The position numbers and the translations under genes were made by a program. The notes below the pieces were generated by a model, which was not told the origin of the DNA, ran no database searches, and was given only the letters and a program-made list of their open reading frames with translations. Source: Minisyncoccota bacterium (GTDB lineage Bacteria > Patescibacteriota > Minisyncoccia > Minisyncoccales > Minisyncoccaceae). From it: a DNA stretch of 64,000 nucleotides. The DNA lies in the NCBI GenBank assembly GCA_041651685.1, contig JBAZIU010000001.1, positions 308,414-372,413 of the forward strand, in the 5' to 3' direction. Of this stretch, positions 3,724 through 62,044 are shown in pieces. Each line of letters opens with the position of its first letter. The stretch's first letter is position 1.

Positions 3724-4302
3724 TTATGGACAACATATGCCGTATGTCGTAATAGGCCAAGTTCCCCAAGTAAGCGCTGATCCGACATATTCATGACAAT
3801 ACCACCCCTGTGCGCCTGAAGTTATAACAGAAAGAGGTACTGATGCAGCCATATAGACATTATTGGCTTGACTAGGAACTCCATAACAACCTCCCCCAAC
3901 AATATATGTTGAAGTTGGGCATATAGCTGATGCTGTGCAATGAGTGCCTCCAGCACAACTCGAACTAGCAGTTACTTGAGTACAATTAGCAGCAGAAAAA
4001 GTTCCAGCTTTAGTTGTTTGCACTGTTCCGTCGGGAAACAAGAATCCTCCAGAGGTGGATTGCACCGTTCCTGCAACGCTTAATTTTTGCTGGGGAGAAT
4101 CTGTTCCTATTCCCACCTTATTATCCGAGGTCACGCAAAGTCCCGTAGTGCATTCCATTTCAGACCAAGAGTGTCCATTAGCCGGCTTTATTGTGGAATA
4201 GGCATCGACTATTTCTGACTTTAAAACATTAACATATTGGAATGATGTTGCCAGTATGGTTAATACCAGTATTGAGCAAATGATTGTTAGGTTTTTGTTC
4301 AT
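3724..4302 (-). CDS. Membrane-anchored Cys-rich fibre-like surface protein (shares its N-terminal module with the S74 proteins)
   Basis: N-terminal TM, then NGHSWSEMECTTGLCVTSDNKVGIGTDSPQQKLSVAGTV, paralleling NPGHLWSSMECNSDTLCVDT.NNRLGIGTASP in 20162 and 58076; then FLFPDGTVQTT (tail-fibre-like) and a 10-Cys C-terminal domain. Confidence 0.6.
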   Translation of the reverse strand: MNKNLTIICSILVLTILATSFQYVNVLKSEIVDAYSTIKPANGHSWSEMECTTGLCVTSDNKVGIGTDSPQQKLSVAGTVQSTSGGFLFPDGTVQTTKAGTFSAANCTQVTASSSCAGGTHCTASAICPTSTYIVGGGCYGVPSQANNVYMAASVPLSVITSGAQGWYCHEYVGSALTWGTWPITTYGICCP

Positions 4303-4321: not shown

Positions 4322-5200
4322 TTATGCCTCAGTTGAGCAACAGATAAGGGTTCCCGGACCGACATGGCAGCCGATGGCCATACTGGTGATACTGATAAAC
4401 TCTATTTTGATTTGCGGATACTTTTCTTCAATCAATCCTCTTAATCTCTGGGCCTGTTCCAGATTATCGGCATGCGATATGCCGACTCGGCATCTCTTTC
4501 CTTCGCTCAAGGGCTTCTTGACAACCTCCTCCATTTGCTTAAATAAAGCGTTGGCGGTATCTTGAGCCTGCATTTTAAGATTGGCCGGCTTTACCACGCC
4601 GTCCTTTACCGAAAGAATCGGCCTCATTCCTATTTTTTGCATTTGAGATAAGATTACGGATAAGGCATGATTGATTCTTCCTCCGGCTTCAAGCCATTTG
4701 GGGCTTTCAATCATTCCGAAAAGGAAAGTTTTGGGAAGAAGTGCTTCCACTTCTTTTTTTATTTCTTCCAATGATTTTCCTTCTTCGCTCATTTCGGCAG
4801 CCTTGAGAGCCAAAAGACTTTCACTGGCGTCGGCATTAAAGGAATCGATAACGAGGATTCTTTTTTGTTTTTCCTCGTCAAACATTTTTTGAGCTTGTAT
4901 TGCCGAATTGTATGTTCCCGAGATGGCCGAACTGATGGTTATGCAAATTACGTTTTCAGAATTATTCAGAGCTTCTTCGAAGGCTTTCTTGAACACTCCC
5001 ACTGAAGGTTGAGATGTTTTAGGAGTTGTTTTTATCATTATTCTCTCTGCCTCCCTCATTTTTTCAAAAACATTATTGCCGGAAAGTTTTTCTCCTTCCG
5101 GCCAATCGATTACAAACGGAACAACTACCATTCCGTACTTATCAATCAGTTCTCTTGTGATTGGAGCACTTTCCCCGATGACGATTGTTGATTTTTTCAT
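4322..5200 (-). CDS. DegV family fatty-acid-binding protein (FakB-like)
   Basis: 292 aa; TSQPSVGVFKKAFEE...ICITISSAISGTYNSAIQA is the DegV core motif. Confidence 0.85.
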   Translation of the reverse strand: MKKSTIVIGESAPITRELIDKYGMVVVPFVIDWPEGEKLSGNNVFEKMREAERIMIKTTPKTSQPSVGVFKKAFEEALNNSENVICITISSAISGTYNSAIQAQKMFDEEKQKRILVIDSFNADASESLLALKAAEMSEEGKSLEEIKKEVEALLPKTFLFGMIESPKWLEAGGRINHALSVILSQMQKIGMRPILSVKDGVVKPANLKMQAQDTANALFKQMEEVVKKPLSEGKRCRVGISHADNLEQAQRLRGLIEEKYPQIKIEFISITSMAIGCHVGPGTLICCSTEA

Positions 5201-5210: not shown

Positions 5211-6092
5211 TTACTCTTCTAATGTTGCACACATTAACGTTCCCGGACCGACATGGGCGCCGATAAACGGCCCGGTCATGCTTATAAAGTCGACTTTGAT
5301 TTTATCTCCGAACCTGTTTAATAAAAGAGACTTCAGTTCGTTCGCTTTTTCTATGTTGTCGGCGTGGGAAATGGCAACCCGGTATTTTTTTCCTTCCTGC
5401 ATAGCTTTTTTGGTAACTTCTTCGAAGTGTTTCAAAAGGGCTTCGGCAATATCCTTGGCATTTATGCTTAAGTTGGCCGGCTTCACTTTCCCGTCTTTCA
5501 TATGCAGTATCGGACGTAATCCGATTTTCTGCATTTGGGCCAAGATAACGGCCAGAGTGTGGCTGATTCTTCCCCCGGCTTCCATCTGATTGGGGTTTTC
5601 GGTCATTCCGAAAAAGTATGTTTTATTAACATAGTTATTAATCGTTTCGACTATTTTTTGTATGTCCTCTCCCCTTTCAGATAGCTCGCAGGCCTTAATC
5701 GCCAAAAGACTTTCCGCCGCATCAATATTGTTTGAATCAATGATGTGAATCCTTTTCTGCATTTCTTCGCTGAACATTTTTCTGGTTTGAATTGCCGCAT
5801 TATATGTTCCCGATATTTTTGAACTGATGGTAATCACAATTGTGTTTTCGCTTTTCGACAGCGCTTCATCGTATGCTTTTTTAAAAGCTCCCATCGGCGG
5901 TTGAGAAGTTTTAGGAGTTGAATTGACTCCTTTCTCAACGGCTTTTCTCATTTTTTGAAAGATATTGTCCCCTTTTAATCCTTCTCCTTCCGGCCAATTA
6001 AGGCTGGGAGTCAAAGCAATTATCCCGTACTTATCAAGAATATCTTTAGTTGTTGAAGCGAAGCTGCAAACGATTACGGTTGCTTTTTGCAT
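5211..6092 (-). CDS. DegV family fatty-acid-binding protein (FakB-like)
   Basis: TSQPPMGAFKKAYDE...ITISSKISGTYNAAIQ. Start trimmed from 6158 to ATG 6092 (MQKATVIV) because the longer ORF overlaps the upstream gene by 60 nt. Confidence 0.8.
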   Translation of the reverse strand: MQKATVIVCSFASTTKDILDKYGIIALTPSLNWPEGEGLKGDNIFQKMRKAVEKGVNSTPKTSQPPMGAFKKAYDEALSKSENTIVITISSKISGTYNAAIQTRKMFSEEMQKRIHIIDSNNIDAAESLLAIKACELSERGEDIQKIVETINNYVNKTYFFGMTENPNQMEAGGRISHTLAVILAQMQKIGLRPILHMKDGKVKPANLSINAKDIAEALLKHFEEVTKKAMQEGKKYRVAISHADNIEKANELKSLLLNRFGDKIKVDFISMTGPFIGAHVGPGTLMCATLEE

Positions 6093-6097
6093 ATATT

Positions 6098-6976
6098 TTA
6101 TTGATTCCAAGAAAGAATTAATGTATCGGGTCCGATATGTCCTCCGACCGGAAAGCAAACCAGATTGATAAAAGAGATCTCGGTGTTTTTTAAGCTCAAG
6201 ACCATTTCTTTAAGTTTGTCCGCCTGTCCGATGCTATCGGCATGGGTAATGGCAACACTTACTTTTTTACCGGCATCTCTAATCTTTTTAGTCATCTTTT
6301 CAAATTCTTCAAAGAGAGCAGTGGGAAGATCCTTAACCCCTCTTTTAATGCCGATAATGGTTAGTTTGCCGTCTTTTATTCCGAAGAGCGGTTTTATATT
6401 CATTTTTTCTGCCTGATTAATTACGGTTGGCATGAATCGCGGGACTCTCCCGCTGGCTTCAACCCATTTCGGACTTTTGTACATTGCAATCAGTTTGAAA
6501 TTAGGCAACTCTTTTTTTAATCTTTCGATTACTTCTTTGATACCAAGCTTTTCTTTGATTAGGGATATTGCCTTTAAGCAAATGAGTCCTTCCGATCCGC
6601 TTCCGTGAGTTGAATCAAAAACATGGACTTTGTTTTGCAGTTCTTGAGCCAGGAATTTTTTGGCCTGCATCGCCGAATTGTATGTTCCGGAGATTTTTGA
6701 AGAAAAAGTGATGCACAAAACCTCTTCAAATTCTTTGAGTTTCTCTTTAAAAGCGGAAAGGAAATCGTTGATTGAAGGCTGGGAGGTTTTGATCAAGCTT
6801 TTCATTCCTCTTCTTTCCCCTTCCCTTACCTTTTCATAGATGTTGCCGGGAATGTTGGCCAATTCCTGAAAATCAAGCTTGAATCTGACAATTCCGACCT
6901 TATTGCTTTCTATTATTTCTTGAGGCAAGTCACAGACTTCGTCGAACACCAATCCTATTTTGTTTTGGTTTTCCAT
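6098..6976 (-). CDS. DegV family fatty-acid-binding protein (FakB-like)
   Basis: TSQPSINDFLSAFKE...CITFSSKISGTYNSAMQA; third tandem paralog. Confidence 0.85.
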   Translation of the reverse strand: MENQNKIGLVFDEVCDLPQEIIESNKVGIVRFKLDFQELANIPGNIYEKVREGERRGMKSLIKTSQPSINDFLSAFKEKLKEFEEVLCITFSSKISGTYNSAMQAKKFLAQELQNKVHVFDSTHGSGSEGLICLKAISLIKEKLGIKEVIERLKKELPNFKLIAMYKSPKWVEASGRVPRFMPTVINQAEKMNIKPLFGIKDGKLTIIGIKRGVKDLPTALFEEFEKMTKKIRDAGKKVSVAITHADSIGQADKLKEMVLSLKNTEISFINLVCFPVGGHIGPDTLILSWNQ

Positions 6977-7007: not shown

Positions 7008-8792
7008 CTATTTGACTATCCAGCCCACCAACAAGCTTTGCGGACAGGCATTGATGCTGGTGACCGGGTCGGTAACATTGATAAAGGAGATGTCGGTCTT
7101 CCTTATCGTCTTCAGTTTTTGCTTTAATCCCTCGGCCATTTCCAGATGGTCTCCGTGACAGATAACCACTCTGATTCTCTTCCCTTCTCGGATGTCTCTT
7201 CGCGACTCTCTTTCTATTTTATTAAACAGGGCCGTGGCGAAATCATTGGTTTTAAAGCTTTCGGTGGCAACTATTTTTCCATGCCTCATTTCGCCCAAAG
7301 CATATCGAACCTCTTCCTTTTTTCTAAACCAGAAAGGAGTATTTTTTTCCTTGTTCCACCAGTCTGATTTTTCGGCGATACAATACAGGTTAGTTTTAAG
7401 AACGGTCATTTCCATTCTTTTCAATATTTCTCTGACCTTTCTTTGTTCGGTTATCATTTCCAGGGCTTCAAGGACTACGATTGATTGGCCGGCACTGACG
7501 TTTTTCGAATCAATGATAAAGACGTGTTCCCTCTCGACATAGTTGAGCATTTCCCTCCCTTTAACAGCCGCTTCGTAGTTTTGGGAAAGCTTGGAAGAAG
7601 AAACGATGCAAAGAATGTCTTCGAATTTTTCCAATTGTTTTTTGAAAGATTCCATGAAAAATTCGGGATGAATCGGCTCTATTTTCGGCTGGGAAACCAC
7701 GCCTTGTTTTTTGGCTTCTTTAATTCTCTGGCAAATATTTTCTCCGACGATATTTTCACCTTCCGGCCAGCTGATTCTCAAAGGAATCACTTCTATTCCG
7801 TAGTGGGAAATTATCTTGGCCGACAGCCCGGCTCTTTCATCGACAACGATTCCGATAGAAACATTCTCAACCGATTTTTCTCCGGTAACTTCTTTGGCCA
7901 TATCCTCGATTCTTAAGCTTTCAATCGTTCCCATTTTTTTGACAATGTCTCTCACCTCATACGGGTCGTCGGTATGGATATGGATTTTAGTCCTATCCCC
8001 CACTTGGATGACATCAAGGCAGTTGCCCAGGTAGTGCAATTTTTCTTTGATTTGTTTTTCCGAATAATCTCCGTCTTCAAGCAAGGCCACTACTTCATAT
8101 CTGTTGGAAAGAATCTGAACGAATCTTCTCGGCCTGTTCATTTCTTCCTTTTCGTATGACTTAATGGTGAACGGCTCGGACTGTTCTTTCAGTGTATCCA
8201 GATATGTTTCCAATATCATTAAAAAGCCCAATCCTCCGGCATCGACTACCCCCGCTTTTTTCAGCACTTCCATTTTGTTGGGGGTATCCAATAACGCAGC
8301 ATTGGCTTTTTCTAAGGCGTGATAGAAGATTTTGACAATGTCTTTTTCTTCGTCCGATTTTTCTTGTATTCCCAAGGCGAAAGCTTGAATGACATCGAGC
8401 ATGGTTCCCTCTTTGGGGTTTTGGATAGAATCTTTGGCTCTTTCATATCCTTTGTTAAAAGCTTCGCCCAGCTTCTTTGCGTCAACCGTCGATTCTTTGC
8501 TGATAACGGGAAGGAAGCCGGCCAAAAATCCCGTATAGATTATGCCGGTATTGCCTTGGGCGAAAGTCAGAGCTCCGTCCAAAGCATCGTTGCCCAGTTC
8601 TTCAATTGAAGAATATTCTTTGTTTTCAACCGCGTCTTTAATTCCCTTAAGTGTTGCGGCCAAGTTGTTTCCCGTGTCCTGGTCAGGTACCGGAAAAACA
8701 TTGATTTTGTTTACCTGCTCTTTATCTCTCTCGATTCTTTCGTAGGAGAAAAGCAGCATTTTCTGTAATTCTTTTTGCGATAGTTGGTCCAT
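7008..8792 (-). CDS. Dak2 (DhaL-like) domain fused to a DegV-like C-terminal domain; FakA/YloV-like fatty acid kinase candidate
   Basis: 594 aa; N-terminal FPVPDQDTGNNLAATLKGI (Dak2 phosphate-binding motif); C-terminal ~270 aa resembles the neighbouring DegV genes (VSQPKIEPIHPEFFMESF...CIVSSSKLSQNYEAA). Confidence 0.7.
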   Translation of the reverse strand: MDQLSQKELQKMLLFSYERIERDKEQVNKINVFPVPDQDTGNNLAATLKGIKDAVENKEYSSIEELGNDALDGALTFAQGNTGIIYTGFLAGFLPVISKESTVDAKKLGEAFNKGYERAKDSIQNPKEGTMLDVIQAFALGIQEKSDEEKDIVKIFYHALEKANAALLDTPNKMEVLKKAGVVDAGGLGFLMILETYLDTLKEQSEPFTIKSYEKEEMNRPRRFVQILSNRYEVVALLEDGDYSEKQIKEKLHYLGNCLDVIQVGDRTKIHIHTDDPYEVRDIVKKMGTIESLRIEDMAKEVTGEKSVENVSIGIVVDERAGLSAKIISHYGIEVIPLRISWPEGENIVGENICQRIKEAKKQGVVSQPKIEPIHPEFFMESFKKQLEKFEDILCIVSSSKLSQNYEAAVKGREMLNYVEREHVFIIDSKNVSAGQSIVVLEALEMITEQRKVREILKRMEMTVLKTNLYCIAEKSDWWNKEKNTPFWFRKKEEVRYALGEMRHGKIVATESFKTNDFATALFNKIERESRRDIREGKRIRVVICHGDHLEMAEGLKQKLKTIRKTDISFINVTDPVTSINACPQSLLVGWIVK

Positions 8793-10921: not shown

Positions 10922-10926
10922 GAAGA

Positions 10927-10942
10927 TGTTTCACGTGAAACA
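10927..10942. promoter_or_regulatory. parS-consensus palindrome (site 4)
   Basis: Perfect TGTTTCACGTGAAACA; begins 5 nt from the tRNA-Ala 5' end. Confidence 0.75.
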
Positions 10943-10961
10943 TCTGGTAGGACATCCAAAA

Positions 10962-10977
10962 TGTTTCACGTGAAACA
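10962..10977. promoter_or_regulatory. parS-consensus palindrome (site 5)
   Basis: Perfect TGTTTCACGTGAAACA. Confidence 0.75.
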
Positions 10978-10988
10978 TTTGGAAGGAG

Positions 10989-15167: not shown

Positions 15168-15752
15168 ATGCTGATTCCAACAGTTATTGAAAAAACACAA
15201 GCGGGGGAGAGGGCATACGATATTTATTCCCGCCTTTTGAAAGACAGAATTATTTTTTTGTCGGGCGTAGTTGATGATCATATCGCCAATACCATTGTCG
15301 CCCAGATGTTGTTCTTGGCTTCAAAGGACCCCAACAAGGATATCCAATTATATATCAACAGTCCCGGAGGTTCGGTTACCGCCGGTCTGGCTATCTACGA
15401 TACGATGCAATACATCAAACCCGATGTTTCCACGGTTTCAATCGGAATGTCGGCTTCGATGGGAGCAATGATTCTGGCGGCCGGAGCCAAAGGAAAAAGA
15501 TATGCTTTGCCCAACTCGGAAATCCTTCTCCATCAGGTGATGGGAGGAGCGAGAGGACAGGCTTCGGAAATAGAAATCACGGCCAAGCAGATATTAAGGA
15601 TAAAAGAAAACATCAACAAAATTTTATCCAAGCATACTAATCAGCCTTTAGCAAAAATAGCTAAAGACACAGATAGAGATTTCTATTTAACCGCCGACGA
15701 GGCAAAAGAATACGGAGTGATTGACGAAGTTATCTATCCTAAAAAAAACTAG
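15168..15752 (+). CDS. clpP: ATP-dependent Clp protease proteolytic subunit
   Basis: 194 aa; [41 protein letters not shown] (Ser-His-Asp triad context). Confidence 0.95.
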
Positions 15753-15756
15753 AAGA

Positions 15757-15785
15757 CAAGCAGGCGAACGCCTGTTTGTTTTTTA
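15757..15785 (+). terminator. Rho-independent terminator after clpP
   Basis: CAAGCAGGC-gaac-GCCTGTTTG followed by a T-run. Confidence 0.7.
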
Positions 15786-15794: not shown

Positions 15795-15823
15795 TTGACT
15801 ATAGCTTATAAAATTGAGATAAT
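15795..15823 (+). promoter_or_regulatory. Sigma70-type promoter candidate (TTGACT-17-GATAAT) for the surface-protein operon
   Basis: TTGACT 15795-15800, 17-nt spacer, GATAAT 15818-15823. The same TTGACT-17-TAT-type pattern recurs at 34562 and 43332. Confidence 0.55.
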
Positions 15824-15851
15824 AAATTCAATAAAATCAACAAACATATTC

Positions 15852-18800
15852 ATGCCTCAAATATTTAAAGATAAAAGGTTCGTTATATTATTTTCCGCAA
15901 TTTTGTTTTTAATTATCGGAGGTTTTTGTTTTTGGAATGTAAATTTCAACAATGATGTTTCTGCAGCAGGGGAGAGTTGGCTTACCGGATGGAGCTACAG
16001 AAAGCCGATAACTGTAACCTCTACATCCGCAGCAACTGATTATCAAGTAAAACTAACCGTTTCATATATTGCTTCAAAAATGAACGCTGATTTTAGCGAT
16101 TTAAGATTCACTTCGTCGAACGGTTCAACCGAACTTTCTTACTGGATTGAATCATACACCGCTTCAACTTCTGCCATCGTTTGGGTTAAGGTTCCTTCTC
16201 TTGCTTCAGGTGCAAATACAATATACATGTATTATGGAAAATCTTCGGTAGCCACTACTTCTAACGGAACCAATACTTTTATTTTCTTTGATGATTTTAA
16301 CGGGACTCTTAGTAAATGGATGTCTGTAGGCTCAAATAGCCAGTGTTCCCCATCGACAAATTCTATTGGTGGAGGAGTATTTACAACATCAAATAATTAT
16401 GGTTCTGCTAATACCGTTGGACTGACGAGTGCAAGTCCTCTTTCCGTCACAGACAATTTTATCGTTGGAACGAAATTTAAGATGATGCCAGCGTGTACCT
16501 ATGCAGACGTTCGCTTCTTTCTTAATGTTAAGGCTTCGACTCAAGCGGCCATTAATGGTTCGTGTATTTTTTATAGAGAAGGGTCAACAATGTATAATAG
16601 ACTTTATGTGGATTATAATACGTCGTCATATACTTCCGTAAGTTCTCTTGCTGATAATACGTATTATAAAACAGAAATTTCTTATTACGGTGGCAACGGT
16701 AAAATAAATCTATATACATCAGACGGGACCTTATTGGGAACCAATAGCGGGACTATTCCAAACGGCGGTAATTACATTTCCGTTGGGAACGGCGGTCATA
16801 ATTATGGATCAGTTGATTGGCTTTATGTCCGTAAATATGTTTCTTCTGAGCCGACAATATCTTTCGGAGCCGAAGGAGAGCCGCCCTACACTTTTTCCTA
16901 CCGCACACCGATAATGATTAACAACACTCCCAATTCAAGTACGCTGACCAATTATCAAATTTTAGTAACTGTCGACACCGCTTCTTTGGTTAGTGCCGGA
17001 AAACTTCAAAGCGATTGTGACGATATTAGTTTTACCGACAACTCAACTTCATATAATAGTGGAGACTGGACCAATAAATATCCCTACTGGATAGAATCAG
17101 GATGTAACACCCCCACAACTAAGATTTGGGTCAAAGTGGATTCTATCGCCGCTTTGTCGTACAAGTCTATTTATATGTATTACGGAAATTTATCGGCAAC
17201 CATTGCCTCAAGTGGAACTAACACTTTTGTTTTCTTTGATGATTTTACCGGAACAACCATTAATACCAGTAAATGGATTAAAACCGATTCGGGAGGATAT
17301 ATAAGCCAAAACGGAGTTTTAACCATTAGTAATGGAACTGCAACTTGGGGCCAAACAGAAATGCACACGGTCAGTGATTTCAACAGGGCTGATGGATTGG
17401 TGGTCCAAGGCAAATACAAATCAACAATGGTAAGAGGAGCATCCTATACAGATACTACTATGCTTTGGATCAAAGATTCGGGAACAGGAACCAATTATAC
17501 GGATTATATTTATGCTTTATATCCGTATGAATCCAGTGGGGCAGCTTTTGCTATGTATGAAGACGGTAACTCAAGAGGTACTGCAACTGGAACCTTTACC
17601 GCCAACACTCAATACAACATTAGACAGATAATAAAGAGTGCGGGGGCATTAACTCAAATAAGTACGGATGGAGGGGATACGTGGACAGATAGTTATAATT
17701 CAACTTATTCAACCGAAACACCATTTAAGGTTGGCTTTACGCATTATCAAGGCGGAGATGTTATCATCGACAATGTGATTGTTCGTAAATATACATCAAC
17801 TGAACCGACGGTGACTGTGATTAATGAATCCCTTGATGGTTGCTCTGCTACTGGAGGAGTGATAACCAAAATTAGCGGTTATTGTATTCATACGTTTATT
17901 TCCAGCGGAACTTTTTATCCCAATAGTATTGCTTCCGTCGAATACCTTGTAGTTGGAGGCGGAGGGGCGGGTGGAAGAGAGGCGTCTACAGCTGGTTCCG
18001 GTGGAGGCGCTGGTGGATTGTTAACGTCTACGGGACTTGCCATTACACCCGGGTCATCTATTACAGTTACCGTAGGTGCTGGAGGTGTAGACGGCGGTGG
18101 CGTGGCAGGCACCAACGGTGGCAATTCTGTATTTTCAACAATTACTGCAACTGGCGGAGGCGGCGGAAGTTATTATTCTGGTGCAGATGGTGGTAGCGGA
18201 GGAGGATCAGGTCCGGGCGGTACTGCCGGAGGGACTGGTACACAAAATAACAATCCTGCGGGAATTGGTTTTGGCCACGATGGAGGATTGGGGGCATCAA
18301 ATGGTGGCGGTGGAGGCGGCGGAGGCGGCGCAGCTGGTGGAAACGCTTCATCAGGAGTCGGAGGAAGTGGAGGGGCGGGCATTTCTTCATCTATTACAGG
18401 AACAGCTACTTATTATGCCGGTGGGGGAGGAGGATCAGGTTCTTCTACAGCTGGCTCCGGCGGAAGCGGCATAGGAGGAGCTGGTAATATTGGTAATGGA
18501 AACGGAGGTAATGGAGTCGCAAATACTGGCAGCGGCGGCGGCGGCGCAAGGATTGGGTACATTGTTGGCTCCGGTGGTTCCGGTATCGTTATTGTCAAAT
18601 ATTTGATTGACAGCACGAGTCCGGTGATTGCTCAAGTTACAGCCGTACCCAGCCCTACAAGCGACACTACTCCCGATTATACTTTCAGTTCCACCGAAGC
18701 GGGAACCATCACATACGGTGGCGATTGTTCCAGTTCCACAACTTCAGCTGTATCTGGAAATAATACAATTACATTTAATATTTTGGCCGAAGGAACTCAT

Positions 18801-19739
18801 AGTAATTGTACAATTAAAGTAGCCGATGCTTCAAATAATAACAGCAACACCTTAACCGTTAATTCTTTTACCATTGCTTCGCATGTATCCACAGTATATT
18901 CCAACGGTGTTTTTTCCTGTTTTGTTTCCGGTGATTGCGGTACCGGAACAACTATTTTGAAATTGTCTGATTATATGGGCGGCCATGCCGAACTGTCCAG
19001 CGGAAGTGTTTACGAATACAAAGTTTGTTGTAGCGGAACAGGAATATCTAATTCATGTTCTGGTGGTTCGACTGTTTTGAGATTATCCGCTTCTACCGAC
19101 GCTCACGTGGAACAAAACAACAGAAGCAACAGTGCATATAATTCAAATAGCGTCTGTATCTCCGGAACAACCGGAATGACTTGCAGCTATGCAAGCAGCT
19201 GTTCTTCTCTCGGTTCTAACTATGTTTGTTTGGCATCGATTTCCGGAGACACCAATGCCCATGTTGCCGAGTGCGGTGTTTATTCGACTCAAGTTTGCTG
19301 CCAGACATCTGTTCCCACCAATTCGTGTATTGCAAAAATATCCGCTGTTCCATCGGTGGATAAGGCGGGAAGCGTTCAACTATGTTCCGATGCTGATATT
19401 ACCAACTCTTCCGACCCTTGTTATTCCACCTGCTGGACGGGAACGGGAACACCTGTTGTGACTGATTCCGATTGGAAATGCAGTACCTGCAAAGATACAA
19501 GTAACAATACTATTCCTTGCTTTAATTCGGGAGCCACCTATAGCTGGACCTTATCGGGCGGTCATTCATCTTCTTCCGATTACACGATTACCTCGGGCGG
19601 CTTATCCAGTGCCAATCTAAATATTAATTTTATCGTTGCCGACAAGACGAGAAAAGCGACTTTAAGTATTAATAGCAATCTTTGCAATGCGACAACTGGT
19701 GCCTTGTCGCCGGTATGGAAGGAGGTATCGCCATTTTAA
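15852..19739 (+). CDS. Giant membrane-anchored surface protein: 2x DUF2341 + LamG-like modules, Gly-rich domain, Ig-like domain, Cys-rich repeats
   Basis: Start moved to ATG 15852 (MPQIFKDKRFVILFSAILFLIIGGF, signal anchor) downstream of the promoter. WSYRKPITV...LRFTSSNGSTELSYWIES...IVWVKVP...IYMYYG and FSYRTPIMI...ISFTD...YPYWIES...IWVKVD...IYMYYGN are DUF2341-type; FFDDFNG/FFDDFTG...VRKY are LamG-like; YLVVGGGGAGG...GGSGIVIVKY is the Gly-rich domain. Confidence 0.8.
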   Translation: MPQIFKDKRFVILFSAILFLIIGGFCFWNVNFNNDVSAAGESWLTGWSYRKPITVTSTSAATDYQVKLTVSYIASKMNADFSDLRFTSSNGSTELSYWIESYTASTSAIVWVKVPSLASGANTIYMYYGKSSVATTSNGTNTFIFFDDFNGTLSKWMSVGSNSQCSPSTNSIGGGVFTTSNNYGSANTVGLTSASPLSVTDNFIVGTKFKMMPACTYADVRFFLNVKASTQAAINGSCIFYREGSTMYNRLYVDYNTSSYTSVSSLADNTYYKTEISYYGGNGKINLYTSDGTLLGTNSGTIPNGGNYISVGNGGHNYGSVDWLYVRKYVSSEPTISFGAEGEPPYTFSYRTPIMINNTPNSSTLTNYQILVTVDTASLVSAGKLQSDCDDISFTDNSTSYNSGDWTNKYPYWIESGCNTPTTKIWVKVDSIAALSYKSIYMYYGNLSATIASSGTNTFVFFDDFTGTTINTSKWIKTDSGGYISQNGVLTISNGTATWGQTEMHTVSDFNRADGLVVQGKYKSTMVRGASYTDTTMLWIKDSGTGTNYTDYIYALYPYESSGAAFAMYEDGNSRGTATGTFTANTQYNIRQIIKSAGALTQISTDGGDTWTDSYNSTYSTETPFKVGFTHYQGGDVIIDNVIVRKYTSTEPTVTVINESLDGCSATGGVITKISGYCIHTFISSGTFYPNSIASVEYLVVGGGGAGGREASTAGSGGGAGGLLTSTGLAITPGSSITVTVGAGGVDGGGVAGTNGGNSVFSTITATGGGGGSYYSGADGGSGGGSGPGGTAGGTGTQNNNPAGIGFGHDGGLGASNGGGGGGGGGAAGGNASSGVGGSGGAGISSSITGTATYYAGGGGGSGSSTAGSGGSGIGGAGNIGNGNGGNGVANTGSGGGGARIGYIVGSGGSGIVIVKYLIDSTSPVIAQVTAVPSPTSDTTPDYTFSSTEAGTITYGGDCSSSTTSAVSGNNTITFNILAEGTHSNCTIKVADASNNNSNTLTVNSFTIASHVSTVYSNGVFSCFVSGDCGTGTTILKLSDYMGGHAELSSGSVYEYKVCCSGTGISNSCSGGSTVLRLSASTDAHVEQNNRSNSAYNSNSVCISGTTGMTCSYASSCSSLGSNYVCLASISGDTNAHVAECGVYSTQVCCQTSVPTNSCIAKISAVPSVDKAGSVQLCSDADITNSSDPCYSTCWTGTGTPVVTDSDWKCSTCKDTSNNTIPCFNSGATYSWTLSGGHSSSSDYTITSGGLSSANLNINFIVADKTRKATLSINSNLCNATTGALSPVWKEVSPF

Positions 19740-19770
19740 GAAAAGATGTGATTGAATAAAGAATAAAAAT

Positions 19771-20160
19771 ATGTCAAAAAATAACATTTTTATCTTAATC
19801 CTTTCGGTGATAATTCTTTTGACCTCCGCTTATTTTTTCTATCTCAGCAGAACGGTCGATTCATATTATGCGGTATATTTAAAGACCGGCGATTTGTATT
19901 TCGGACACCTTTCAACTTTTCCTTCATTCAAAATGACCGACGTCTATTACATCCAGAAGAACGAAACAGACAATAGTTTGGGATTGCAAAAGTTCACCGA
20001 TTCTGTTTTTGCTCCGGAAAATCAGATTACTTTAGTTAAAGACAACATCGTCTGGACGACCAAACTGAAAGAAGATTCTCAGATTATCAAGGCGATAAAA
20101 CAGGGAATTACCACTACAACTAACGATCAAACACAAACAAATAATAATCAATCTAAATAA
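19771..20160 (+). CDS. Small membrane-anchored protein of unknown function
   Basis: 129 aa, N-terminal TM, Thr/Asn/Gln-rich tail; sits between the giant protein and the S74 fibre gene (1-nt gap to the latter). Confidence 0.55.
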   Translation: MSKNNIFILILSVIILLTSAYFFYLSRTVDSYYAVYLKTGDLYFGHLSTFPSFKMTDVYYIQKNETDNSLGLQKFTDSVFAPENQITLVKDNIVWTTKLKEDSQIIKAIKQGITTTTNDQTQTNNNQSK

Positions 20161-20161
20161 T

Positions 20162-21325
20162 ATGAATAAACAAAAATATCTAATTATTTTTATAGTTTTA
20201 TTCCTCGGTTTAGGTTTTTGTATCTACCAATATTTGGAAACATTCAAAACAGAAGTTGCTTCTGCAACTTCAACCGTTCCCAATCCGGGACACCTTTGGA
20301 GTTCCATGGAATGCAATTCCGATACTTTGTGCGTTGATACGGTCAACAACAGATTGGGAATAGGGACGGCGAGTCCGGCGGCAAAGATAGACATAGTTGG
20401 TAGCTTACGACTGGCATCATCAAGTACATATAAGAGATTTATCAATGTAGCATCGTATGAAGCTCAGGGATTCACTAAAACTGGTACCATAGTTATTAAA
20501 GTTGGACGCACGTCTACGCATTTTATGTCAAAAATTAGAATTTCTGGTTGGTCATATACTAAATCTTGGGACGTAACGGTTTCTGGCTACGCCCAGCCGA
20601 CACAGTGGTATCATACGGGAAATGTTGTTATTACTGGTAATCCTCCGTTTAGTGCATCTGATGTTAGGTTAATAACAGACGCTTCAAGTAATCAATATAT
20701 TCTTCTGGGCAAGACGACAACTTCTCACAATTATTACACGATGATTGGTGTCGATGCCGAGGAAACATATAATAATGCTTTGAATTCCGCCGGATGGACT
20801 ATTGATATAACCACAACTGAGCCAGTTGCGGCCTCTACTGTTACCCCGGTCGTGTCTTTGTTCGGCGGAACCTCGGTGATTCCCGGATATCTCGGTATTG
20901 GTACAGCAACTCCCGGTTATGCCTTAACCGTCGCCGGAACCGCCTGGGTCACCTCCGGTTCTTGGTCCGGCTCTGATGCAAGATGGAAAAAGAACGTTTC
21001 TACTCTTTCAACAACATCCTCTCTTGATAAAATATTAGCTTTAAATCCGGTTAACTATGAATGGAAAACAGACGAATATCCGGAAATGAAGTTCTCAAAG
21101 GATGCCCAACTCGGCTTCATCGCTCAGGATGTGGAAAACATCATCCCCGAAGTCGTCACCACCGATAACAACGGATACAAGGGAATATCATACGAAAAGA
21201 TAGTTCCCGTCTTAACCAGTGCTGTTCAGGAGCAGCAAAAGGAGATAAAGAATCTTTCAGATGAGAACAAGTCGTTGAAAGAGCTTGTTTGTTTGGACCA
21301 TCCATTGGCCGATACTTGCAAATAA
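20162..21325 (+). CDS. Tail-fibre-like surface protein with a C-terminal Peptidase_S74 intramolecular chaperone domain (copy A)
   Basis: 387 aa; N-terminal TM; SDARWKKNVSTLSTTSSLDKILALNPVNYEWK...LGFIAQDVENIIPEVV...ISYEKIVPVLTSAVQEQQKEI matches the endosialidase-chaperone (S74) signature. Confidence 0.85.
   Translation: MNKQKYLIIFIVLFLGLGFCIYQYLETFKTEVASATSTVPNPGHLWSSMECNSDTLCVDTVNNRLGIGTASPAAKIDIVGSLRLASSSTYKRFINVASYEAQGFTKTGTIVIKVGRTSTHFMSKIRISGWSYTKSWDVTVSGYAQPTQWYHTGNVVITGNPPFSASDVRLITDASSNQYILLGKTTTSHNYYTMIGVDAEETYNNALNSAGWTIDITTTEPVAASTVTPVVSLFGGTSVIPGYLGIGTATPGYALTVAGTAWVTSGSWSGSDARWKKNVSTLSTTSSLDKILALNPVNYEWKTDEYPEMKFSKDAQLGFIAQDVENIIPEVVTTDNNGYKGISYEKIVPVLTSAVQEQQKEIKNLSDENKSLKELVCLDHPLADTCK
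20225..20378 (+). repeat. Dispersed repeat, N-terminal module of S74 copy A (pairs with 58139-58292)
   Basis: By-eye alignment: only a handful of substitutions over ~150 nt; the encoded YQYLETFKTEVASATSTVPNPGHLWSSMECNSDTLCVDT.NNRLGIGTASP is identical except for one residue. Confidence 0.85.
20924..21247 (+). repeat. Dispersed repeat, C-terminal S74 module of copy A (pairs with 58754-59077)
   Basis: By-eye alignment: mostly synonymous differences over ~320 nt; 108 aa with about 5 substitutions. Confidence 0.85.
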
Positions 21326-21342
21326 TACTAGAATTTAAGCGA

Positions 21343-21367
21343 CTCTTGCTCCGGCAAGAGTTTTTTG
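21343..21367 (+). terminator. Rho-independent terminator after the surface operon
   Basis: CTCTTGC-tccg-GCAAGAG followed by TTTTTT. Confidence 0.75.
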
Positions 21368-34447: not shown

Positions 34448-34522
34448 GCGCGTGTAGCTCAGTTGGTTAGAGCGACCGACTTATAATCGGTAGGTTCGAT
34501 GGTTCGAGTCCATCCACGCGCA
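34448..34522 (+). tRNA. tRNA-Ile (anticodon TAT)
   Basis: Acceptor GCGCGTG/CACGCGC, anticodon stem ACCGA/TCGGT with loop CTTATAA, T arm GATGG-TTCGAGT-CCATC. My fold needs a 6-nt variable region (one extra nt). Confidence 0.75.
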
Positions 34523-34561
34523 CAATAGACAAATCAATCGTTTTCTGGTAGTTTATTTTTG

Positions 34562-40887: not shown

Positions 40888-40970
40888 GCCGAGGTGGCGG
40901 AACTGGCAGACGCGTATGCCTTAGGAGCATATGCCCTTGTGGTGTGAGGGTTCAAATCCCTCCCTCGGCA
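40888..40970 (+). tRNA. tRNA-Leu (anticodon TAG), long variable arm
   Basis: Acceptor GCCGAGG/CCTCGGC, anticodon stem TATGC/GCATA with loop CTTAGGA, T arm GAGGG-TTCAAAT-CCCTC. Confidence 0.9.
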
Positions 40971-40982
40971 CTCATTTAAAAA

Positions 40983-41004
40983 CTGCCCCTTGTGGGGCAG
41001 TTTT
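40983..41004. terminator. Bidirectional terminator between tRNA-Leu (+) and hsp20 (-)
   Basis: CTGCCCC-ttgt-GGGGCAG flanked by an A-run and a T-run. Confidence 0.7.
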
Positions 41005-48171: not shown

Positions 48172-49863
48172 ATGGATAAATCAGAAATCATATTTTTCGG
48201 ACAAACGACCTTTAGGGGAGAAATGAAAAGGTTCGGAATCAAAACAGACGACAGAAGGCGTCATATTTATGTCGTCGGTAAAACCGGTATGGGTAAAACC
48301 GAGCTTTTGAAGAATATGGTTATTCAGGATATCAGGAATGGCAACGGAGTCGGCTTTGTCGACCCGCACGGAGAAGCTTCCGAAGAAATATTAAGGTTCG
48401 TTCCCAAGGAAAGAATCAAAGACGTGGTCTATATCAATCCGGCCGATATTGAAAATCCGATTGCTTTTAATATCATGGAAGATGTTGACGCCGAATACAG
48501 GCATCTTATCGCCGGTGGACTGATGGGTGTTTTTAAGAAGATTTGGCCCGACGTCTGGTCTTCTCGAATGGAATACATTCTAAACAATGCCATTTTGGCT
48601 TTGCTCGATATTCCCGGTTCGACTTTATTGGGAGTCAATAGATTATTGTCCGATCCCGAATGGAGAGCGGAAGTGGTTGAAAAAGTTAAAGACCCGGTGG
48701 TCAAATCTTTTTGGTTAAAAGAATTCAGCCGATACAGCCAGAGATACGAAGTCGAAGCCACCGCCGCCATTCAGAATAAAATCGGACAGTTTATTTCTTC
48801 TCCTCTGGTCAGGAATATTATCGGACAGGAAAAGTCAACGATAGATATCAGGAAGATTATGGATGAAAAAAAGATTCTGATTATGAATCTTAGTAAAGGA
48901 AGAATAGGGGAGGACTCTTCGAGGTTGTTGGGAGCACTATTGGTTACCAAGCTGCAATTGGCCGCCATGTCGAGAGTTGATACGGCCGAAAAAGAAAGAA
49001 ATGATTTTATCTTGTATATTGATGAGTTCCAAAATTTTTCAACTGATTCTTTCGCCAATATTTTATCCGAAGCCAGAAAATACAGACTGTCTTTGGTCTT
49101 GGCCCATCAGTATATAAAGCAAATGGAGGAGAAGGTTATGGACGCGGTGTTCGGCAACGTGGGAACGATGATTGTTTTTAGGGTGGGAGCCGAAGACGGA
49201 GAGTTTTTGGAAAAAGAGTTTTCTCCCGAATTCTATACCCATGATTTGGTTAATCTTCCCAAACAGAATATCTATGTTAAATTGATGATTGACGGTTTGA
49301 CTTCCCGACCTTTTTCTGCGGAAACTCTTCCTCCGGCAATACCGACCGAAGATGACCACGAGAAAGAGATTATTGAATTCTCAAGGAAGACATACGGAAC
49401 CTTAAGGCCGATTGTTGAAGAAAAGATATCCAAATACGCAGGAGTTGAAGATCTTCCCAAGATGGAGGCAAGGGAAAACAGGCCGCAAAAAGATTTGTAT
49501 GATGCCGAGTGCGGCAAATGTGGAAAGAAGGTCAAAGTTCCTTTTAAGCCGGACGGAAAAAGGCCGGTCTATTGCAAGAGTTGTTTAGGCAAGAATGGGG
49601 GAGAGCAGTCCAAGAGTGCTTTTGAAAAGCTTCCTTTCATTTCTTTAGAAGAAACGGCCAAGGAGTTTACCCCGGTTCAGAAAGAAAGGAAGAAAGAAAA
49701 TATTGTTAAACCGGAAATAATTGATTCAAATAAATCCAAAAAGAAAATTGACTTTGAAGGATTGAGGAGTGTGATAAAAGAAGCAAAAAAGGAGAAAGAA
49801 GAAAAGGAGGAAGCTCCGAAAGATAAAGGAACCATCAATCCTGGAGAAGTGATTAAGTTTTAA
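48172..49863 (+). CDS. VirD4/TraD/FtsK-HerA-like P-loop ATPase with a C-terminal CxxC-x17-CxxC zinc ribbon and Lys/Glu-rich tail
   Basis: 563 aa; Walker A VVGKTGMGKTE, Walker B FILYIDEFQNF, LVLAHQY; CGKCGKKVKVPFKPDGKRPVYCKSC; no TM segment. Confidence 0.7.
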   Translation: MDKSEIIFFGQTTFRGEMKRFGIKTDDRRRHIYVVGKTGMGKTELLKNMVIQDIRNGNGVGFVDPHGEASEEILRFVPKERIKDVVYINPADIENPIAFNIMEDVDAEYRHLIAGGLMGVFKKIWPDVWSSRMEYILNNAILALLDIPGSTLLGVNRLLSDPEWRAEVVEKVKDPVVKSFWLKEFSRYSQRYEVEATAAIQNKIGQFISSPLVRNIIGQEKSTIDIRKIMDEKKILIMNLSKGRIGEDSSRLLGALLVTKLQLAAMSRVDTAEKERNDFILYIDEFQNFSTDSFANILSEARKYRLSLVLAHQYIKQMEEKVMDAVFGNVGTMIVFRVGAEDGEFLEKEFSPEFYTHDLVNLPKQNIYVKLMIDGLTSRPFSAETLPPAIPTEDDHEKEIIEFSRKTYGTLRPIVEEKISKYAGVEDLPKMEARENRPQKDLYDAECGKCGKKVKVPFKPDGKRPVYCKSCLGKNGGEQSKSAFEKLPFISLEETAKEFTPVQKERKKENIVKPEIIDSNKSKKKIDFEGLRSVIKEAKKEKEEKEEAPKDKGTINPGEVIKF

Positions 49864-58026: not shown

Positions 58027-58075
58027 TGAATAATTGACACAATAACTGGTTAAGGTAAAATATAAATAAACAAAT

Positions 58076-59134
58076 ATGAAAAAACAAACAATATTTACAA
58101 TCTTCGCAGTGGTATTATTGGGATTAGCTTTCAGTCTCTATCAATATTTAGAAACCTTTAAAACAGAAGTTGCTTCTGCCACTTCAACCGTTCCTAATCC
58201 GGGACACCTCTGGAGTTCCATGGAATGCAATTCCGATACTTTGTGCGTTGATACGACCAACAATAGATTGGGGATAGGGACGGCGAGTCCGGGAACTAAG
58301 TTGGATGTTAACGGAGGCATAAGAGCAATTGGTTCAGGGTTTACGGGAGCCACAGGAAAAAGCGCCGAGATCCAATTATATAGCAATACAGCTTATTTCC
58401 AGGGATATGATAGAACGGGGGATGCCTTTATACCAACCTATTTCCGTGGCAATCCAATTATTTTAGAAGGTGGTAATGTCGGCATCGGGACGACAGTGCC
58501 AAAAACTCAATTACATTTAGGTACAGAGCTCCCAGTTTTATCTATTGGAGCTATTACCACTTACGGTGGTTCCAGCGGCAACGCTATGGCTGCTATTACA
58601 AGTACTCTTACTGCTGGAGGTCAAACTGGCGGTTCATTAAATTTCCAAACTAACCCCTGGGGAGTCATTGATAGTTCTTATGTCCCTGTTACTATGATGA
58701 CTATTCTTCCACGGGGCAATGTCGGCATCGGCACTACTTCTCCTGGCTATAATCTAACCGTTGCCGGCACCGCCTGGGTCACCTCCGGTTCTTGGTCCGG
58801 CTCTGATGCACGATGGAAGAAGAACATTTCAACTCTTTCAACAGCATCTTCTCTTGATAAAATATTAGCTTTAAATTCGGTTAACTATGAATGGAAAACA
58901 GACGAATACCCGGAAATGAAATTCTCGAAAGACGCCCAACTCGGCTTTATCGCTCAGGACGTGGAAAACATCATCCCCGAAGTGGTCACTACCGATAACA
59001 ACGGATATAAGGGAATATCATATGAAAAGATAGTTCCCGTTTTGACCAGTGCCATACAGGAGCAGCAAAAGGAGATAGAGCAATTAAAAACAATGGTCTG
59101 TTCGGACCATCCTTTAGCGGAGATTTGTAAATAG
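58076..59134 (+). CDS. Tail-fibre-like surface protein with a C-terminal Peptidase_S74 intramolecular chaperone domain (copy B)
   Basis: 352 aa; same N-terminal and S74 modules as 20162-21325, different central ~150-180 aa. Confidence 0.85.
   Translation: MKKQTIFTIFAVVLLGLAFSLYQYLETFKTEVASATSTVPNPGHLWSSMECNSDTLCVDTTNNRLGIGTASPGTKLDVNGGIRAIGSGFTGATGKSAEIQLYSNTAYFQGYDRTGDAFIPTYFRGNPIILEGGNVGIGTTVPKTQLHLGTELPVLSIGAITTYGGSSGNAMAAITSTLTAGGQTGGSLNFQTNPWGVIDSSYVPVTMMTILPRGNVGIGTTSPGYNLTVAGTAWVTSGSWSGSDARWKKNISTLSTASSLDKILALNSVNYEWKTDEYPEMKFSKDAQLGFIAQDVENIIPEVVTTDNNGYKGISYEKIVPVLTSAIQEQQKEIEQLKTMVCSDHPLAEICK
58139..58292 (+). repeat. Dispersed repeat, N-terminal module of S74 copy B (pairs with 20225-20378)
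   Basis: See the entry for 20225-20378. Confidence 0.85.
58754..59077 (+). repeat. Dispersed repeat, S74 module of copy B (pairs with 20924-21247)
   Basis: See the entry for 20924-21247. Confidence 0.85.
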
Positions 59135-59624: not shown

Positions 59625-60332
59625 CTATACAAAATAATGCTGTTGGTCAACTTCTCTTGCGACGGTTAGCCCCCAGACTTCTTTGGCTCCGGACTGTTTT
59701 AATGCCTTGGCGCATTCTTCCATAGTCGATCCGGTGGTATAGACATCGTCCAGGAGAAGTATAATTTTGTCTTTAATTATTTCTCCTTTTTCGATTTTAA
59801 AACAATCTTTAATATTATTAATTCTTTCTTCTCTTTTCAGCTCCATCTGCGGAGCGGTTTCCCTTATTTTTATCAGCATATTGGATAAGAGGGGAATGCC
59901 GGTGGATTCGGAGATTGTTTTTCCCATCTCTTCCGATTGATTGAATCCTCTCCTCCTTTTCTTTTTGTCAGTCATGGGAATCGGGATGATGATAAAAGAC
60001 TTATTTATTTCCATTCCGATAGCTTGGAGGTGGGTTAAAATAAGTATTGATAACGGTTGGCAGAGGTCTTTGATGTATCCGTATTTGAATTTATGAATGG
60101 CTTCTTTTAGTATTTTGTTTTTAAAAGAAGCGGCCGAGAATATTTTATCCAGATATCTGTTTTTACATTTATCGCATTTGTCTCTTTTTTCCAGTTTTTC
60201 GCAAAGGCAGTATTGATAGGGGTTTATCTCTATCAAAGACAAACAATCTTCGCAGAGATAGGGCCCTTCTTTTTTGCAATTAATGCACTTTTTAGGAAAA
60301 ATCAAGTCCCAGATTTGTTTTAGATATTCCAT
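59625..60332 (-). CDS. comFC: ComF-family phosphoribosyltransferase-like competence protein (ComFC)
   Basis: 235 aa; N-terminal 4-Cys zinc finger (CINCKKEGPYLCEDC), PRT motif IILLLDDVYTTGST. Confidence 0.8.
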   Translation of the reverse strand: MEYLKQIWDLIFPKKCINCKKEGPYLCEDCLSLIEINPYQYCLCEKLEKRDKCDKCKNRYLDKIFSAASFKNKILKEAIHKFKYGYIKDLCQPLSILILTHLQAIGMEINKSFIIIPIPMTDKKKRRRGFNQSEEMGKTISESTGIPLLSNMLIKIRETAPQMELKREERINNIKDCFKIEKGEIIKDKIILLLDDVYTTGSTMEECAKALKQSGAKEVWGLTVAREVDQQHYFV

Positions 60333-60368
60333 TGCTTTTTAAAAGGTGTTATTATATCAGTATAGCAT

Positions 60369-60396
60369 TTGTCAATGCATTTAAAAATGCTATAAT
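60369..60396 (+). promoter_or_regulatory. Extended -10 promoter candidate for the pil operon (TTGTCA-16-TGcTATAAT)
   Basis: TTGTCA 60369-60374; TGCTATAAT ending at 60396; 10 nt before the pilM ATG. Confidence 0.5.
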
Positions 60397-60406
60397 ATTT
60401 TTAATT

Positions 60407-62043: not shown

Positions 62044-62044
62044 T

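Follow-up and report, generated by a model that had tools for sequence, protein, structure and literature searches.

In Bdellovibrio bacteriovorus, the mosaic adhesive trimer (MAT) family comprises 21 paralogues, of which 13 carry an autoproteolytic S74 end (SDxxxK) and 8 do not (Caulton et al. 2024, PMC10769870). The MAT proteins have a conserved N-terminal domain, are located at the cell surface, undergo 'tip swapping' and act as fibres in prey recognition and handling, and the consensus of their capping loops is common to the myelin regulatory factor, MYRF (PMC10769870). The 64-kb stretch of DNA analysed here, referred to as the window, carries two genes of similar build on the + strand, gene A (20162-21325, an open reading frame (ORF) of 387 amino acids (aa)) and gene B (58076-59134, 352 aa). 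Gene A is composed of a leader, an N module, a beta-sandwich knob, an S74 chaperone and a Cys tail, and in gene B two short loop-bounded units stand in the position of the knob. It is probable that both genes encode lineage-specific, exported, phage-tail-fibre-like fibres of an ultra-small, uncultivated Paceibacterota bacterium, a member of the Candidate Phyla Radiation (CPR), and that these fibres have a MAT-like build and were diversified by recombination. The kind of system is not new, because cellular S74 fibres with swappable tips have already been described in the MAT family of Bdellovibrio. New here are the compact CPR version with its own N-terminal module, the population evidence for single-cassette swaps, the homogenised constant modules and the conserved Cys/His tail.

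The relationship with the MAT proteins is visible at the sequence level. When a profile of 13 family members was compared with the PDB sequences, Bd2133 (8ond) was matched with an E value of 1.4e-10 over profile positions 54-251, and Bd3182 (8ojn/8onb/8onc) with an E value of 2.8e-7. The GIGT motifs fall on the capping loops of Bd2133 and Bd3182 (the first LGIGT motif of gene A among them), the end of the N module (its last ~30 residues) aligns as an extra loop unit, and the gene B centre aligns with the beta-helix units of Bd2133. Both families consist of cellular proteins with several paralogues, a conserved N-terminal part, variable distal domains and S74 as well as non-S74 ends, and in both the units are bounded by a capping loop of the V-G-x-x-x-x-P-x-x-x-L type. 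Gene C (3724-4302, - strand), a third N-module gene of the window with a Cys-rich end in place of S74, is the counterpart of the non-S74 MAT class (e.g. Bd2133), whereas Bd3182 represents the S74 class. The two families differ in size, the CPR fibres having 352-387 aa with one or two units and the MAT fibres measuring ~550 A, as well as in the VCxDHPxxxxCK end that stands behind the chaperone in the CPR fibres and in the organism, which is a CPR bacterium. Moreover, strain-level cassette replacement and inter-locus homogenisation are documented in the CPR family and have not been reported for MATs.

Other described systems share some of these properties. Phage fibres and tailspikes (K1F endosialidase 3GW6, T5 pb1 4UW8, S16 gp37 6F45) have the same PF13884 domain, Ser/Lys motif and helical end, and their receptor-binding part, also placed directly upstream of the cleavage site, is a module exchanged between relatives. 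Genes A and B, however, lie in housekeeping loci without virion or baseplate context, and an export leader replaces the baseplate-docking N-terminus. The intramolecular chaperone auto-processing (ICA) domain of MYRF (7DC3) is the best PDB match of the C module in structure and sequence, including the loop motif before the cleavage site, and MYRF is likewise a membrane-associated cellular protein using a phage-type S74 domain; it is, however, a eukaryotic transcription factor with no variable cassettes, whose cleavage frees the N-terminal part from the membrane. As in Neisseria pilE/pilS, conserved segments flank variable ones, and non-reciprocal recombination between dispersed copies is inferred. 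In contrast to pilE/pilS, genes A, B and C are all complete and have their own expression signals, and the variation is found between strains rather than as switching within a clone. A silent-cassette system was rejected, as self-blastn and tblastn of modules and centres revealed only the three complete genes and no promoterless partial donors in the window. A diversity-generating retroelement (DGR) was also rejected, since neither centre has a second copy in the window and the centres differ in length and fold, not at scattered positions; the scan for a DGR reverse transcriptase did not extend to every window ORF.

Mosaic anatomy of genes A and B

The original prediction described two genes with near-identical 5' and 3' modules around unrelated centres, and the ORFs, blastn and codon-aware sliding identity gave the same picture. 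The 5' repeat (20159-20378 versus 58073-58292) is 86.0% identical in nucleotides (nt; E 3e-65) and the 3' repeat (20925-21253 versus 58755-59084) 91.8% (E 2e-132), with no blastn alignment between them; in the self-comparison of the window these are by far the strongest repeats. Divergence is thus not uniform along the genes, the ends being conserved and the centres unalignable. At codons 21-65 and 262-361 the aa identity reaches 0.93-1.0 with third-position identity of 0.67-0.93, whereas in the centres, which are of unequal length, aa identity falls to 0.1-0.4, the chance level. The outermost parts, namely the first 20 codons (47% aa identity) and the last ~25 codons, have also diverged. At the nucleotide level, the N-module core (141 nt) is 92.9% identical and the C module 88.7-91.8%. 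The GC content at third codon positions (GC3) is 32-35% in the centres and in the neighbouring giant gene compared with ~45% in the modules and housekeeping genes, and there is no strong compositional anomaly.

Gene A begins with a hydrophobic, locus-specific leader (codons 1-22, 20162-20227), supported by the AlphaFold2 (AF2) helix, nt identity and the synonymous divergence (dS); its nt identity is 86-88% to other locus-A alleles and 66-71% to locus-B genes. The N module follows (codons 21-72, 20222-20377, YQYLETFKTEVASATSTVPNPGHLWSSMECNSDTLCVDTVNNRLGIGTASP), supported by nt identity to gene B and dS, and contains the first LGIGT loop motif (20354-20368), behind which the left cassette border lies at ~20381-20391. 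The variable centre (20378-20890) is a single beta-sandwich knob of ~170 aa according to the AF2 model and the homologue search. The C module (20891-21247), recognised by blastn, Pfam and the model, comprises the last LGIGT loop, the S74 chaperone and the start of a long helix, and is followed by a tail (21248-21325), diverged in sliding identity and dS, with the helix, the C-terminal VCLDHPLADTCK and the stop codon. In gene B, the N module occupies 58136-58291 (blastn, sliding identity), the variable centre 58292-58720, with two cassettes split by a VGIGT motif at 58478-58492 (motif scan, segment clustering), and the S74-bearing C module 58721-59077 (blastn, Pfam), with SDARWK at 58802-58819. 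All these elements are on the + strand.

Residues 6-22 of gene A are hydrophobic, and the AF2 model places a helix at residues 3-34 with a predicted local distance difference test score (pLDDT) >80. The N-module family pattern is …QY…KTE..SA….PNPGH.W…EC..D.LCVD..NxRLGIGT..P, with Q23, Y24, A35, G43, H44, E50, C51 and C57 invariant. Residue 35 is Ala throughout and residue 33 either Ala or Val, which gives a conserved (A/V)-x-A site; in short relatives, e.g. P0196, this site stands directly after the hydrophobic core, like a signal-peptidase site (proteins of the wider family are numbered P and loci fetched from other assemblies L). Because of the conserved site at residue 35, the leader may be removed as a signal peptide instead of serving as an anchor. 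The N-terminal membrane anchor that had been proposed for these genes is therefore real as a hydrophobic segment, while its anchoring role is uncertain in view of possible cleavage at A35. A lipoprotein leader was excluded by the lack of a lipobox Cys in gene B, and a pilin leader by the lack of a G/FTLxE prepilin motif in the sequences of A and B. In P0023, P0024, P0027 and P0037, which belong to other lineages, a prepilin-type N-terminus (PF07963, N_methyl) precedes the same S74 C module. These pilin-fused relatives suggest fibres that are displayed on type IV pilins or assembled like them.

The claim that the 3' module is an S74 chaperone containing SDARWKKN and a catalytic Ser/Lys dyad was borne out by the Pfam profile and by structure alignments. 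PF13884 (Peptidase_S74) matched residues 271-333 of A (E 5e-17, 62.4 bits) and 243-305 of B (E 2e-16, 60.3 bits) at a gathering score of 22, and both matches span profile positions 1-58 of 58. The SDARWKKN motif lies at 20972-20995 in gene A and 58802-58825 in gene B and starts with S271 and S243, respectively. The dyad residues are five positions apart (S271/K276 in A, S243/K248 in B), and the predicted cleavage and catalytic motif of gene A, S271-D-A-R-W-K276 (20972-20989), was identified by translation, conservation and alignment. The S, D, R and K of SDxRxK (S271, D272, R274 and K276 in A) are kept in at least 90% of 60 family members, and SDARWK aligns with 'ADLRAK' of MYRF 7dc3 and with 'SDRRIK' of phage S16 gp37 6f45. 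The C module was modelled by AF2 with pLDDT >90, and its best Foldseek match is the MyRF ICA domain 7dc3 (TMt 0.64-0.70, probability 1.0); the endosialidase chaperone 3gw6 matches it weakly. No NCBIfam model matched any of the five proteins scanned. Behind the S74 core, a long helix (residues 344-379 in gene A) leads to the conserved VCxDHPxxxxCK end (21287-21322 in gene A, 59096-59131 in gene B, 7132-7167 in L011). This end is kept even with a different S74 variant (L011, P0016) and in proteins of metagenome-assembled genomes (MAGs) labelled as Micrarchaeia, and is absent from the pilin-fused relative P0027. As guesses, it could form a disulfide loop or a metal site in the chaperone fragment.

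In the motif scan, an (N)VGIGTxxPxxKL motif was found at every border of the variable segments. Gene A has one 179-aa segment between two motifs, and the two segments of gene B measure 70 and 81 aa. Codon choice differs among the five copies of the motif, and no nucleotide string is conserved in all of them, which excludes the motif as a DNA-level recombination site; the cassette borders are the points where homology ends and domains begin. The gene A centre has no Pfam, PHROG or NCBIfam family and no similarity to gene B or to the locus-A alleles of other strains. The exhaustive HMMER search among 1.84 billion representatives detected 56 homologues of it, the best with 49% identity, whereas a word-based search returned none. 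These homologues sit within fibre-like proteins of 958-2620 aa bearing up to 20 loop motifs, and their ends are of the S74 type in P0125 and P0126 and of the phage tail-fibre type in P0121 and P0130. The AF2 model of the knob, built with the homologues as alignment, is an all-beta sandwich (pLDDT 82, residues 30-170 >90) resembling predicted phage tail and tail-fibre proteins (TMq 0.55-0.61), and sequence and fold searches of the PDB gave weak beta-sandwich matches only. In gene B, the first cassette recurs in P0017 and P0042 according to segment clustering. One 80-aa cassette stands second in P0002, P0003 and P0019, yet first in P0004.

Cassette replacement and homogenised modules

Exchangeable tips had been predicted from the two genes of the window, and they are seen as allele replacement at both loci in related strains, where the fibre middles have been swapped. 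The order of genes at locus A (NusA, trigger factor, ClpP, the giant protein, an ORF of 127-129 aa, the fibre and RNase Y) is kept in related strains; the fibre position, however, holds other alleles (P0003, P0002). In the comparison with the L005 and L009 alleles, the flanks are 88-95% identical in nt and the stretch 19759-20391 is 84% identical; similarity to gene A ends at 20381-20391, the segment 20391-20885 is unalignable, and similarity is back at 20885. Within the resumed stretch, the C module is ~80% identical, whereas the downstream flank is 90-97% identical. At locus B, the flanks of L091 are 87-88% identical up to 58282 and from 58715, and the centre between these positions is unalignable; in L090 the allele has been kept at 94% nt. 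The clearest event is a single-cassette swap, as L005 and L009 are 93-95% identical over the whole operon bar one cassette (217 versus 244 nt), which lies exactly between two loop motifs. Different alleles coexist in one community, since allele A (in L002) and allele P0002 (in L009) were recovered from a single sample. The whole locus-A operon is best described as a strain-variable island, because the giant gene has also been largely replaced.

Divergence between the two genes was partitioned by the Nei-Gojobori method. The leader (20 codons) has 8.3 synonymous and 13.7 non-synonymous changes (dS 1.83) and the last 13 codons 5.5 and 4.5 (dS 2.06), while the N module has 9 and 3 (dS 0.31) and the C module 25 and 6 (dS 0.44), in line with the mostly synonymous changes that had been judged by eye. 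The ratio of non-synonymous to synonymous divergence (dN/dS) in the modules is 0.05-0.08. Synonymous divergence is saturated in the leader and the tail. The contrast in dS indicates that the modules share a more recent ancestry than the rest of the genes, for which constraint on the protein alone is insufficient. Identities within and across loci lead in the same direction. The leader (first 66 nt) is 86-92% identical within locus A and 91-95% within locus B and only 63-71% between A and B. The N module of window A is 87.9% identical to that of other strains at the same locus (88-95% within locus B) and 92.9% and 95.0% identical across loci, to window B and to L090. The C module is 81-82% identical between window A and other strains and 81.4% between window B and L091, compared with 88.7% between A and B of the same genome. 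The leader thus groups by locus, the N module does not, and the C module groups by genome. Because the modules group across loci or by genome and not by locus, gene conversion or another inter-locus exchange is indicated, and recombination between the conserved flanks, as originally proposed, is supported by these identity patterns together with dS.

Genes A and B are direct repeats 38 kb apart with essential genes in between, and only non-crossover events would be tolerated, because a crossover would delete the 38 kb. Homology was probably provided by the long modules or by the housekeeping flanks. Natural competence has been described in Patescibacteria (PMC10633639), and comF and pilMNO stand beside gene B. 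Alleles may be imported by this route.

Interpretation and competing explanations

In our reading, the two genes represent a compact CPR form of the MAT-like fibre adhesins processed by S74, with an N-terminal module of its own. Trimerisation, autocleavage before the Ser, surface display and host adhesion are predicted for A and B from their domains, as is the export topology. The hydrophobic leader would export the chain, which would then either remain as an N-in/C-out anchor or be cut at (A/V)-x-A35. The S74 chaperone and the long helix would set three chains in register, from which the loop-capped units or the knob would fold, and the Ser/Lys dyad would sever the chaperone, releasing 117 aa (A) or 110 aa (B) and exposing the distal end. 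The N module may tether all paralogues to a common cell-envelope partner or to the membrane, and the variable centre would bind a ligand, whose most plausible location is the cell surface of the episymbiont's host. Whole cassettes bounded by (N)VGIGTxxPxxKL would be replaced by recombination through the homology of the N and C modules, and these modules would themselves be kept alike by inter-locus exchange of the non-crossover type.

Several observations weigh against this interpretation. The MAT-defining beta-rich N-terminal domain, which in MAT proteins covers ~130 aa behind the signal peptide, is absent in the CPR family, whose proteins have instead the hydrophobic leader and a Cys-containing module of ~50 aa. 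The MAT matches are driven for the most part by the repeated loop motif (for Bd2133 the HMMER bias is 12), the homology of the units between the loops being weaker. Cleavage of the leader would leave the attachment of the fibres to the cell unexplained. The dS values of leader and tail come from 20 and 13 codons only and are noisy. The AF2 models are of monomers, and the centre of the full-length model is poor. Finally, the locus-A operon (15910-21330) is divergent as a whole, and the housekeeping flanks may have served as arms for some of the replacements.

Tentatively, the fibres could be the host-range determinants of the episymbiont, with the N module docking paralogues on one envelope platform and the tips drawn from a community-wide pool, imported by natural transformation and spread by gene conversion. 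Phage tail fibres would draw on this pool too, as would co-resident organisms with small genomes, MAGs labelled as Micrarchaeia (DPANN) among them. If this were true, the partner specificity of a cell would evolve just as the host range of a phage does. It is rather unlikely that the products are S74-processed exported fibres serving other ends than host recognition, such as the binding of glycans or matrix (biofilm, nutrients), scaffolding of the envelope or surface layer together with the giant protein, or action as decoys or blockers against phages. Glycan-type cassettes (CBM_4_9, F5/8 type C) do occur in paralogues and relatives, gene A lies in one operon with the gene for a giant DUF2341/Gly-rich surface protein, phage fibres contain the knob as well, and nothing in the analysis points to a particular ligand. 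However, the replacement of tips between strains of one community fits diversifying, partner-specific selection, the MAT fibres as the closest characterised relatives serve prey recognition and handling, and small-genome CPR bacteria are generally host-dependent.

The mosaic itself could have arisen in other ways. The genes could be ordinary paralogues in which strong positive selection made the centres diverge in place and purifying selection held the ends, with no exchange or conversion; the functional constraint on S74 ends and the low dN/dS of the modules would agree with this. This explanation is very improbable, as the centres differ in architecture (a 179-aa knob segment versus 70 + 81 aa) and have each their own homologues elsewhere, the synonymous divergence of the modules is 4-6 times below that of the leader and tail beside them, the modules cluster by genome or across loci instead of by locus, and L005 and L009 differ by one cleanly bounded cassette. 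There is a similarly slight chance that the genes do not encode cellular surface proteins but are prophage or tailocin remnants, or phage tail-fibre morons. Every PHROG match is to tail fibres, and some proteins with phage tail-fibre ends contain the knob of A; yet these matches were obtained mainly through the S74 end and the loop motif, the proteins have export leaders, at least 4 paralogues stand at separate housekeeping loci, and the locus-A operon is syntenic in relatives down to ~73-76% nt. The absence of phage neighbours, asserted from the outset, was confirmed by family matching of ~40 larger ORFs across the window. Every scanned ORF with a family match is cellular, and the scanned ORFs, both those near the two loci and those elsewhere in the window, include no phage structural, integrase or lysis genes. 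The housekeeping set includes the CCA-adding enzyme, NusA, trigger factor, ClpP, RNase Y, HtrA, IF-2, S1, FtsH, GyrA, TsaD, SecD, RecG, DedA, ComF and PilM/N/O, along with 25 scattered tRNA genes. Least probable of all is an assembly artefact, that is, a chimeric metagenome contig joined across repeated modules. The genome is a MAG and the repeats measure 150-330 bp; they are, however, only 86-92% identical, a divergence too high for collapse in assembly. Moreover, gene A with the same flanks is present in three independent assemblies, the gene B allele (97% aa identity) is present with its flanks in the independent assembly L090, and both ORFs are intact and in frame.

Recombinational diversification of MAT-like exported fibres, the interpretation preferred here, bears on the question of how CPR (Patescibacteria) cells find and hold their hosts, which is largely open. 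In reviews and transposon-sequencing work on this subject, type IV pili and unnamed adhesins are the only players named, and no paper linking S74 or tail-fibre-like proteins to CPR was found within a literature search of limited coverage. The fibre family offers concrete candidates. It would also extend the MAT principle, experimentally shown so far in one predator only, to an unrelated host-dependent lineage, and it makes visible the population genetics of MAT-like fibres, with single-cassette swaps and concerted evolution of the constant parts.

Relatives, operon context and other features of the window

The N module is joined to many unrelated centres and also to non-S74 ends. Gene C was found by tblastn with the N module (49% identity to A, E 4e-12); it has the same leader and N module followed by a Cys-rich domain of ~115 aa, and has no Pfam or NCBIfam family. 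Other non-S74 members are the Cys-rich P0065, P0090 with an FGE-sulfatase domain and P0094 with a Gly-rich domain. P0009 is a third S74 paralogue with a CBM_4_9 centre, located elsewhere among housekeeping genes and probably in the same genome. In a one-pattern scan of 185,579 species, each represented by a single genome, the full N module was found at four loci in three genomes, all CPR-like, whereas the loop motif alone is widespread, occurring in Flavobacteriia, Saccharibacteria, Peregrinibacteria, Bdellovibrionales and DPANN-labelled MAGs. A word-based search with the N-module profile returned short or truncated proteins only.

Further loci illustrate the mobility of the family. L011, a 655-kb chromosome, has a syntenic locus-A operon, and its fibre combines the N module with another centre, the S74 variant SDERIKKDI and the same VCLDHPTAEICK end. 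In the related MAG L013 (4105-7178), two N-module genes, one of them a 64-aa fragment, stand in a 3-kb insert directly after tRNA-Leu; the family moves between loci, because the window has no fibre gene at the corresponding site (40888-41000). In the more distant relative L095 (1636-7392), the upstream flank of locus B (tRNA-Ser, an RNase H-like gene and DedA) is joined to the giant/129-aa/fibre unit, as expected if loci A and B were related by rearrangement or duplication through fibre genes. In the relative L157 (6585-7833), the N module (104 aa) and a product of 321 aa that bears F5/8 type C and S74 domains are encoded by separate ORFs that overlap. This 'split' gene was considered as a silent cassette and rejected, a frameshift or sequencing error being likelier (contig_25990, long-read style). 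The L157 locus adjoins restriction-modification, Fic and antitoxin genes.

The CBM_4_9 cassette and C module of P0009 (L004 10001-11248) are 70% identical in aa to P0020. P0020 and P0021 (L155, L156) bear the NCBI label 'Candidatus Micrarchaeia archaeon', which remains unverified; P0021 was recovered from the samples that yielded the window organism, and it lies beside leucine and branched-chain amino acid biosynthesis genes. In 95 kb of the Micrarchaeia-labelled contigs no RNA genes were found, and the neighbouring ORFs are giant surface proteins. The likeness of P0009 and P0020 may reflect cross-domain cassette sharing or mis-binning. At least 5 genes with the same C module are present in Ga0310040_1000001 (L097, L107, L111, L112, L118; ~1.2 Mb), and at least 2 in Ga0209749_1000002 (L101, L109; ~1.2 Mb), and giant ORFs of 800-1700 aa surround the C-module genes of both. 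The two contigs seem to represent extensive paralogue expansion in other small genomes.

Gene A is identical to P0001, which NCBI annotates as 'tail fiber domain-containing protein [Candidatus Paceibacterota bacterium]' on a contig of 433,938 bp, and closes a three-gene unit consisting of the giant protein, the 129-aa ORF and gene A. The unit lies behind a terminator-like hairpin after clpP (15750-15785) and is closed by another (21341-21362, +; a 9-bp stem, then a T run). Its first gene (15795-19739, +) encodes the giant surface protein with two DUF2341 domains, Gly_rich_2 and a Cys-rich end according to Pfam; the true start is probably further downstream, because the mechanical TTG start at 15795 overlaps a promoter-like site. 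The giant protein has 1314 aa here, 703 aa in L005 and L009 and 926 aa in L011, and its C-terminal third alone is conserved between strains. The 129-aa membrane-protein ORF taken from the ORF list (19771-20160, +) abuts gene A and has no family match; it is 71-89% identical in aa in every locus-A relative and absent at locus B and at the other fetched loci. Gene B stands alone behind a promoter-like site (58034-58061, +; TTGACA, 16 nt, TAAAAT), which has 11/12 consensus matches and lies 15 bp upstream of the ATG. The PilM/PilN/PilO cluster beside comF (60332-62710, +) directly adjoins gene B and is envelope machinery typical of Patescibacteria, as is the machinery represented by a VirD4/TraG-type coupling protein with a treble-clef zinc finger (48172-49860, +).

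The window contains some further features. A tRNA-Ile with the anticodon UAU (34448-34523, +), predicted by ARAGORN and scoring 73.7 bits with the Rfam tRNA model, points to AUA decoding that is unusual for a bacterium. Three tandem DegV-like paralogues lie on the - strand (4322-5200, 5211-6158 and 6098-6976) and contain an internal 74% nt repeat (4842-5028 versus 5734-5920); the trio is adjoined by a gene for a FakA-like Dak2 + DegV fusion (7008-8792, -). An imperfect palindrome of 53 nt (83%) is located at 10926-10978, between tRNA-Ala and the gene of the CCA-adding enzyme.

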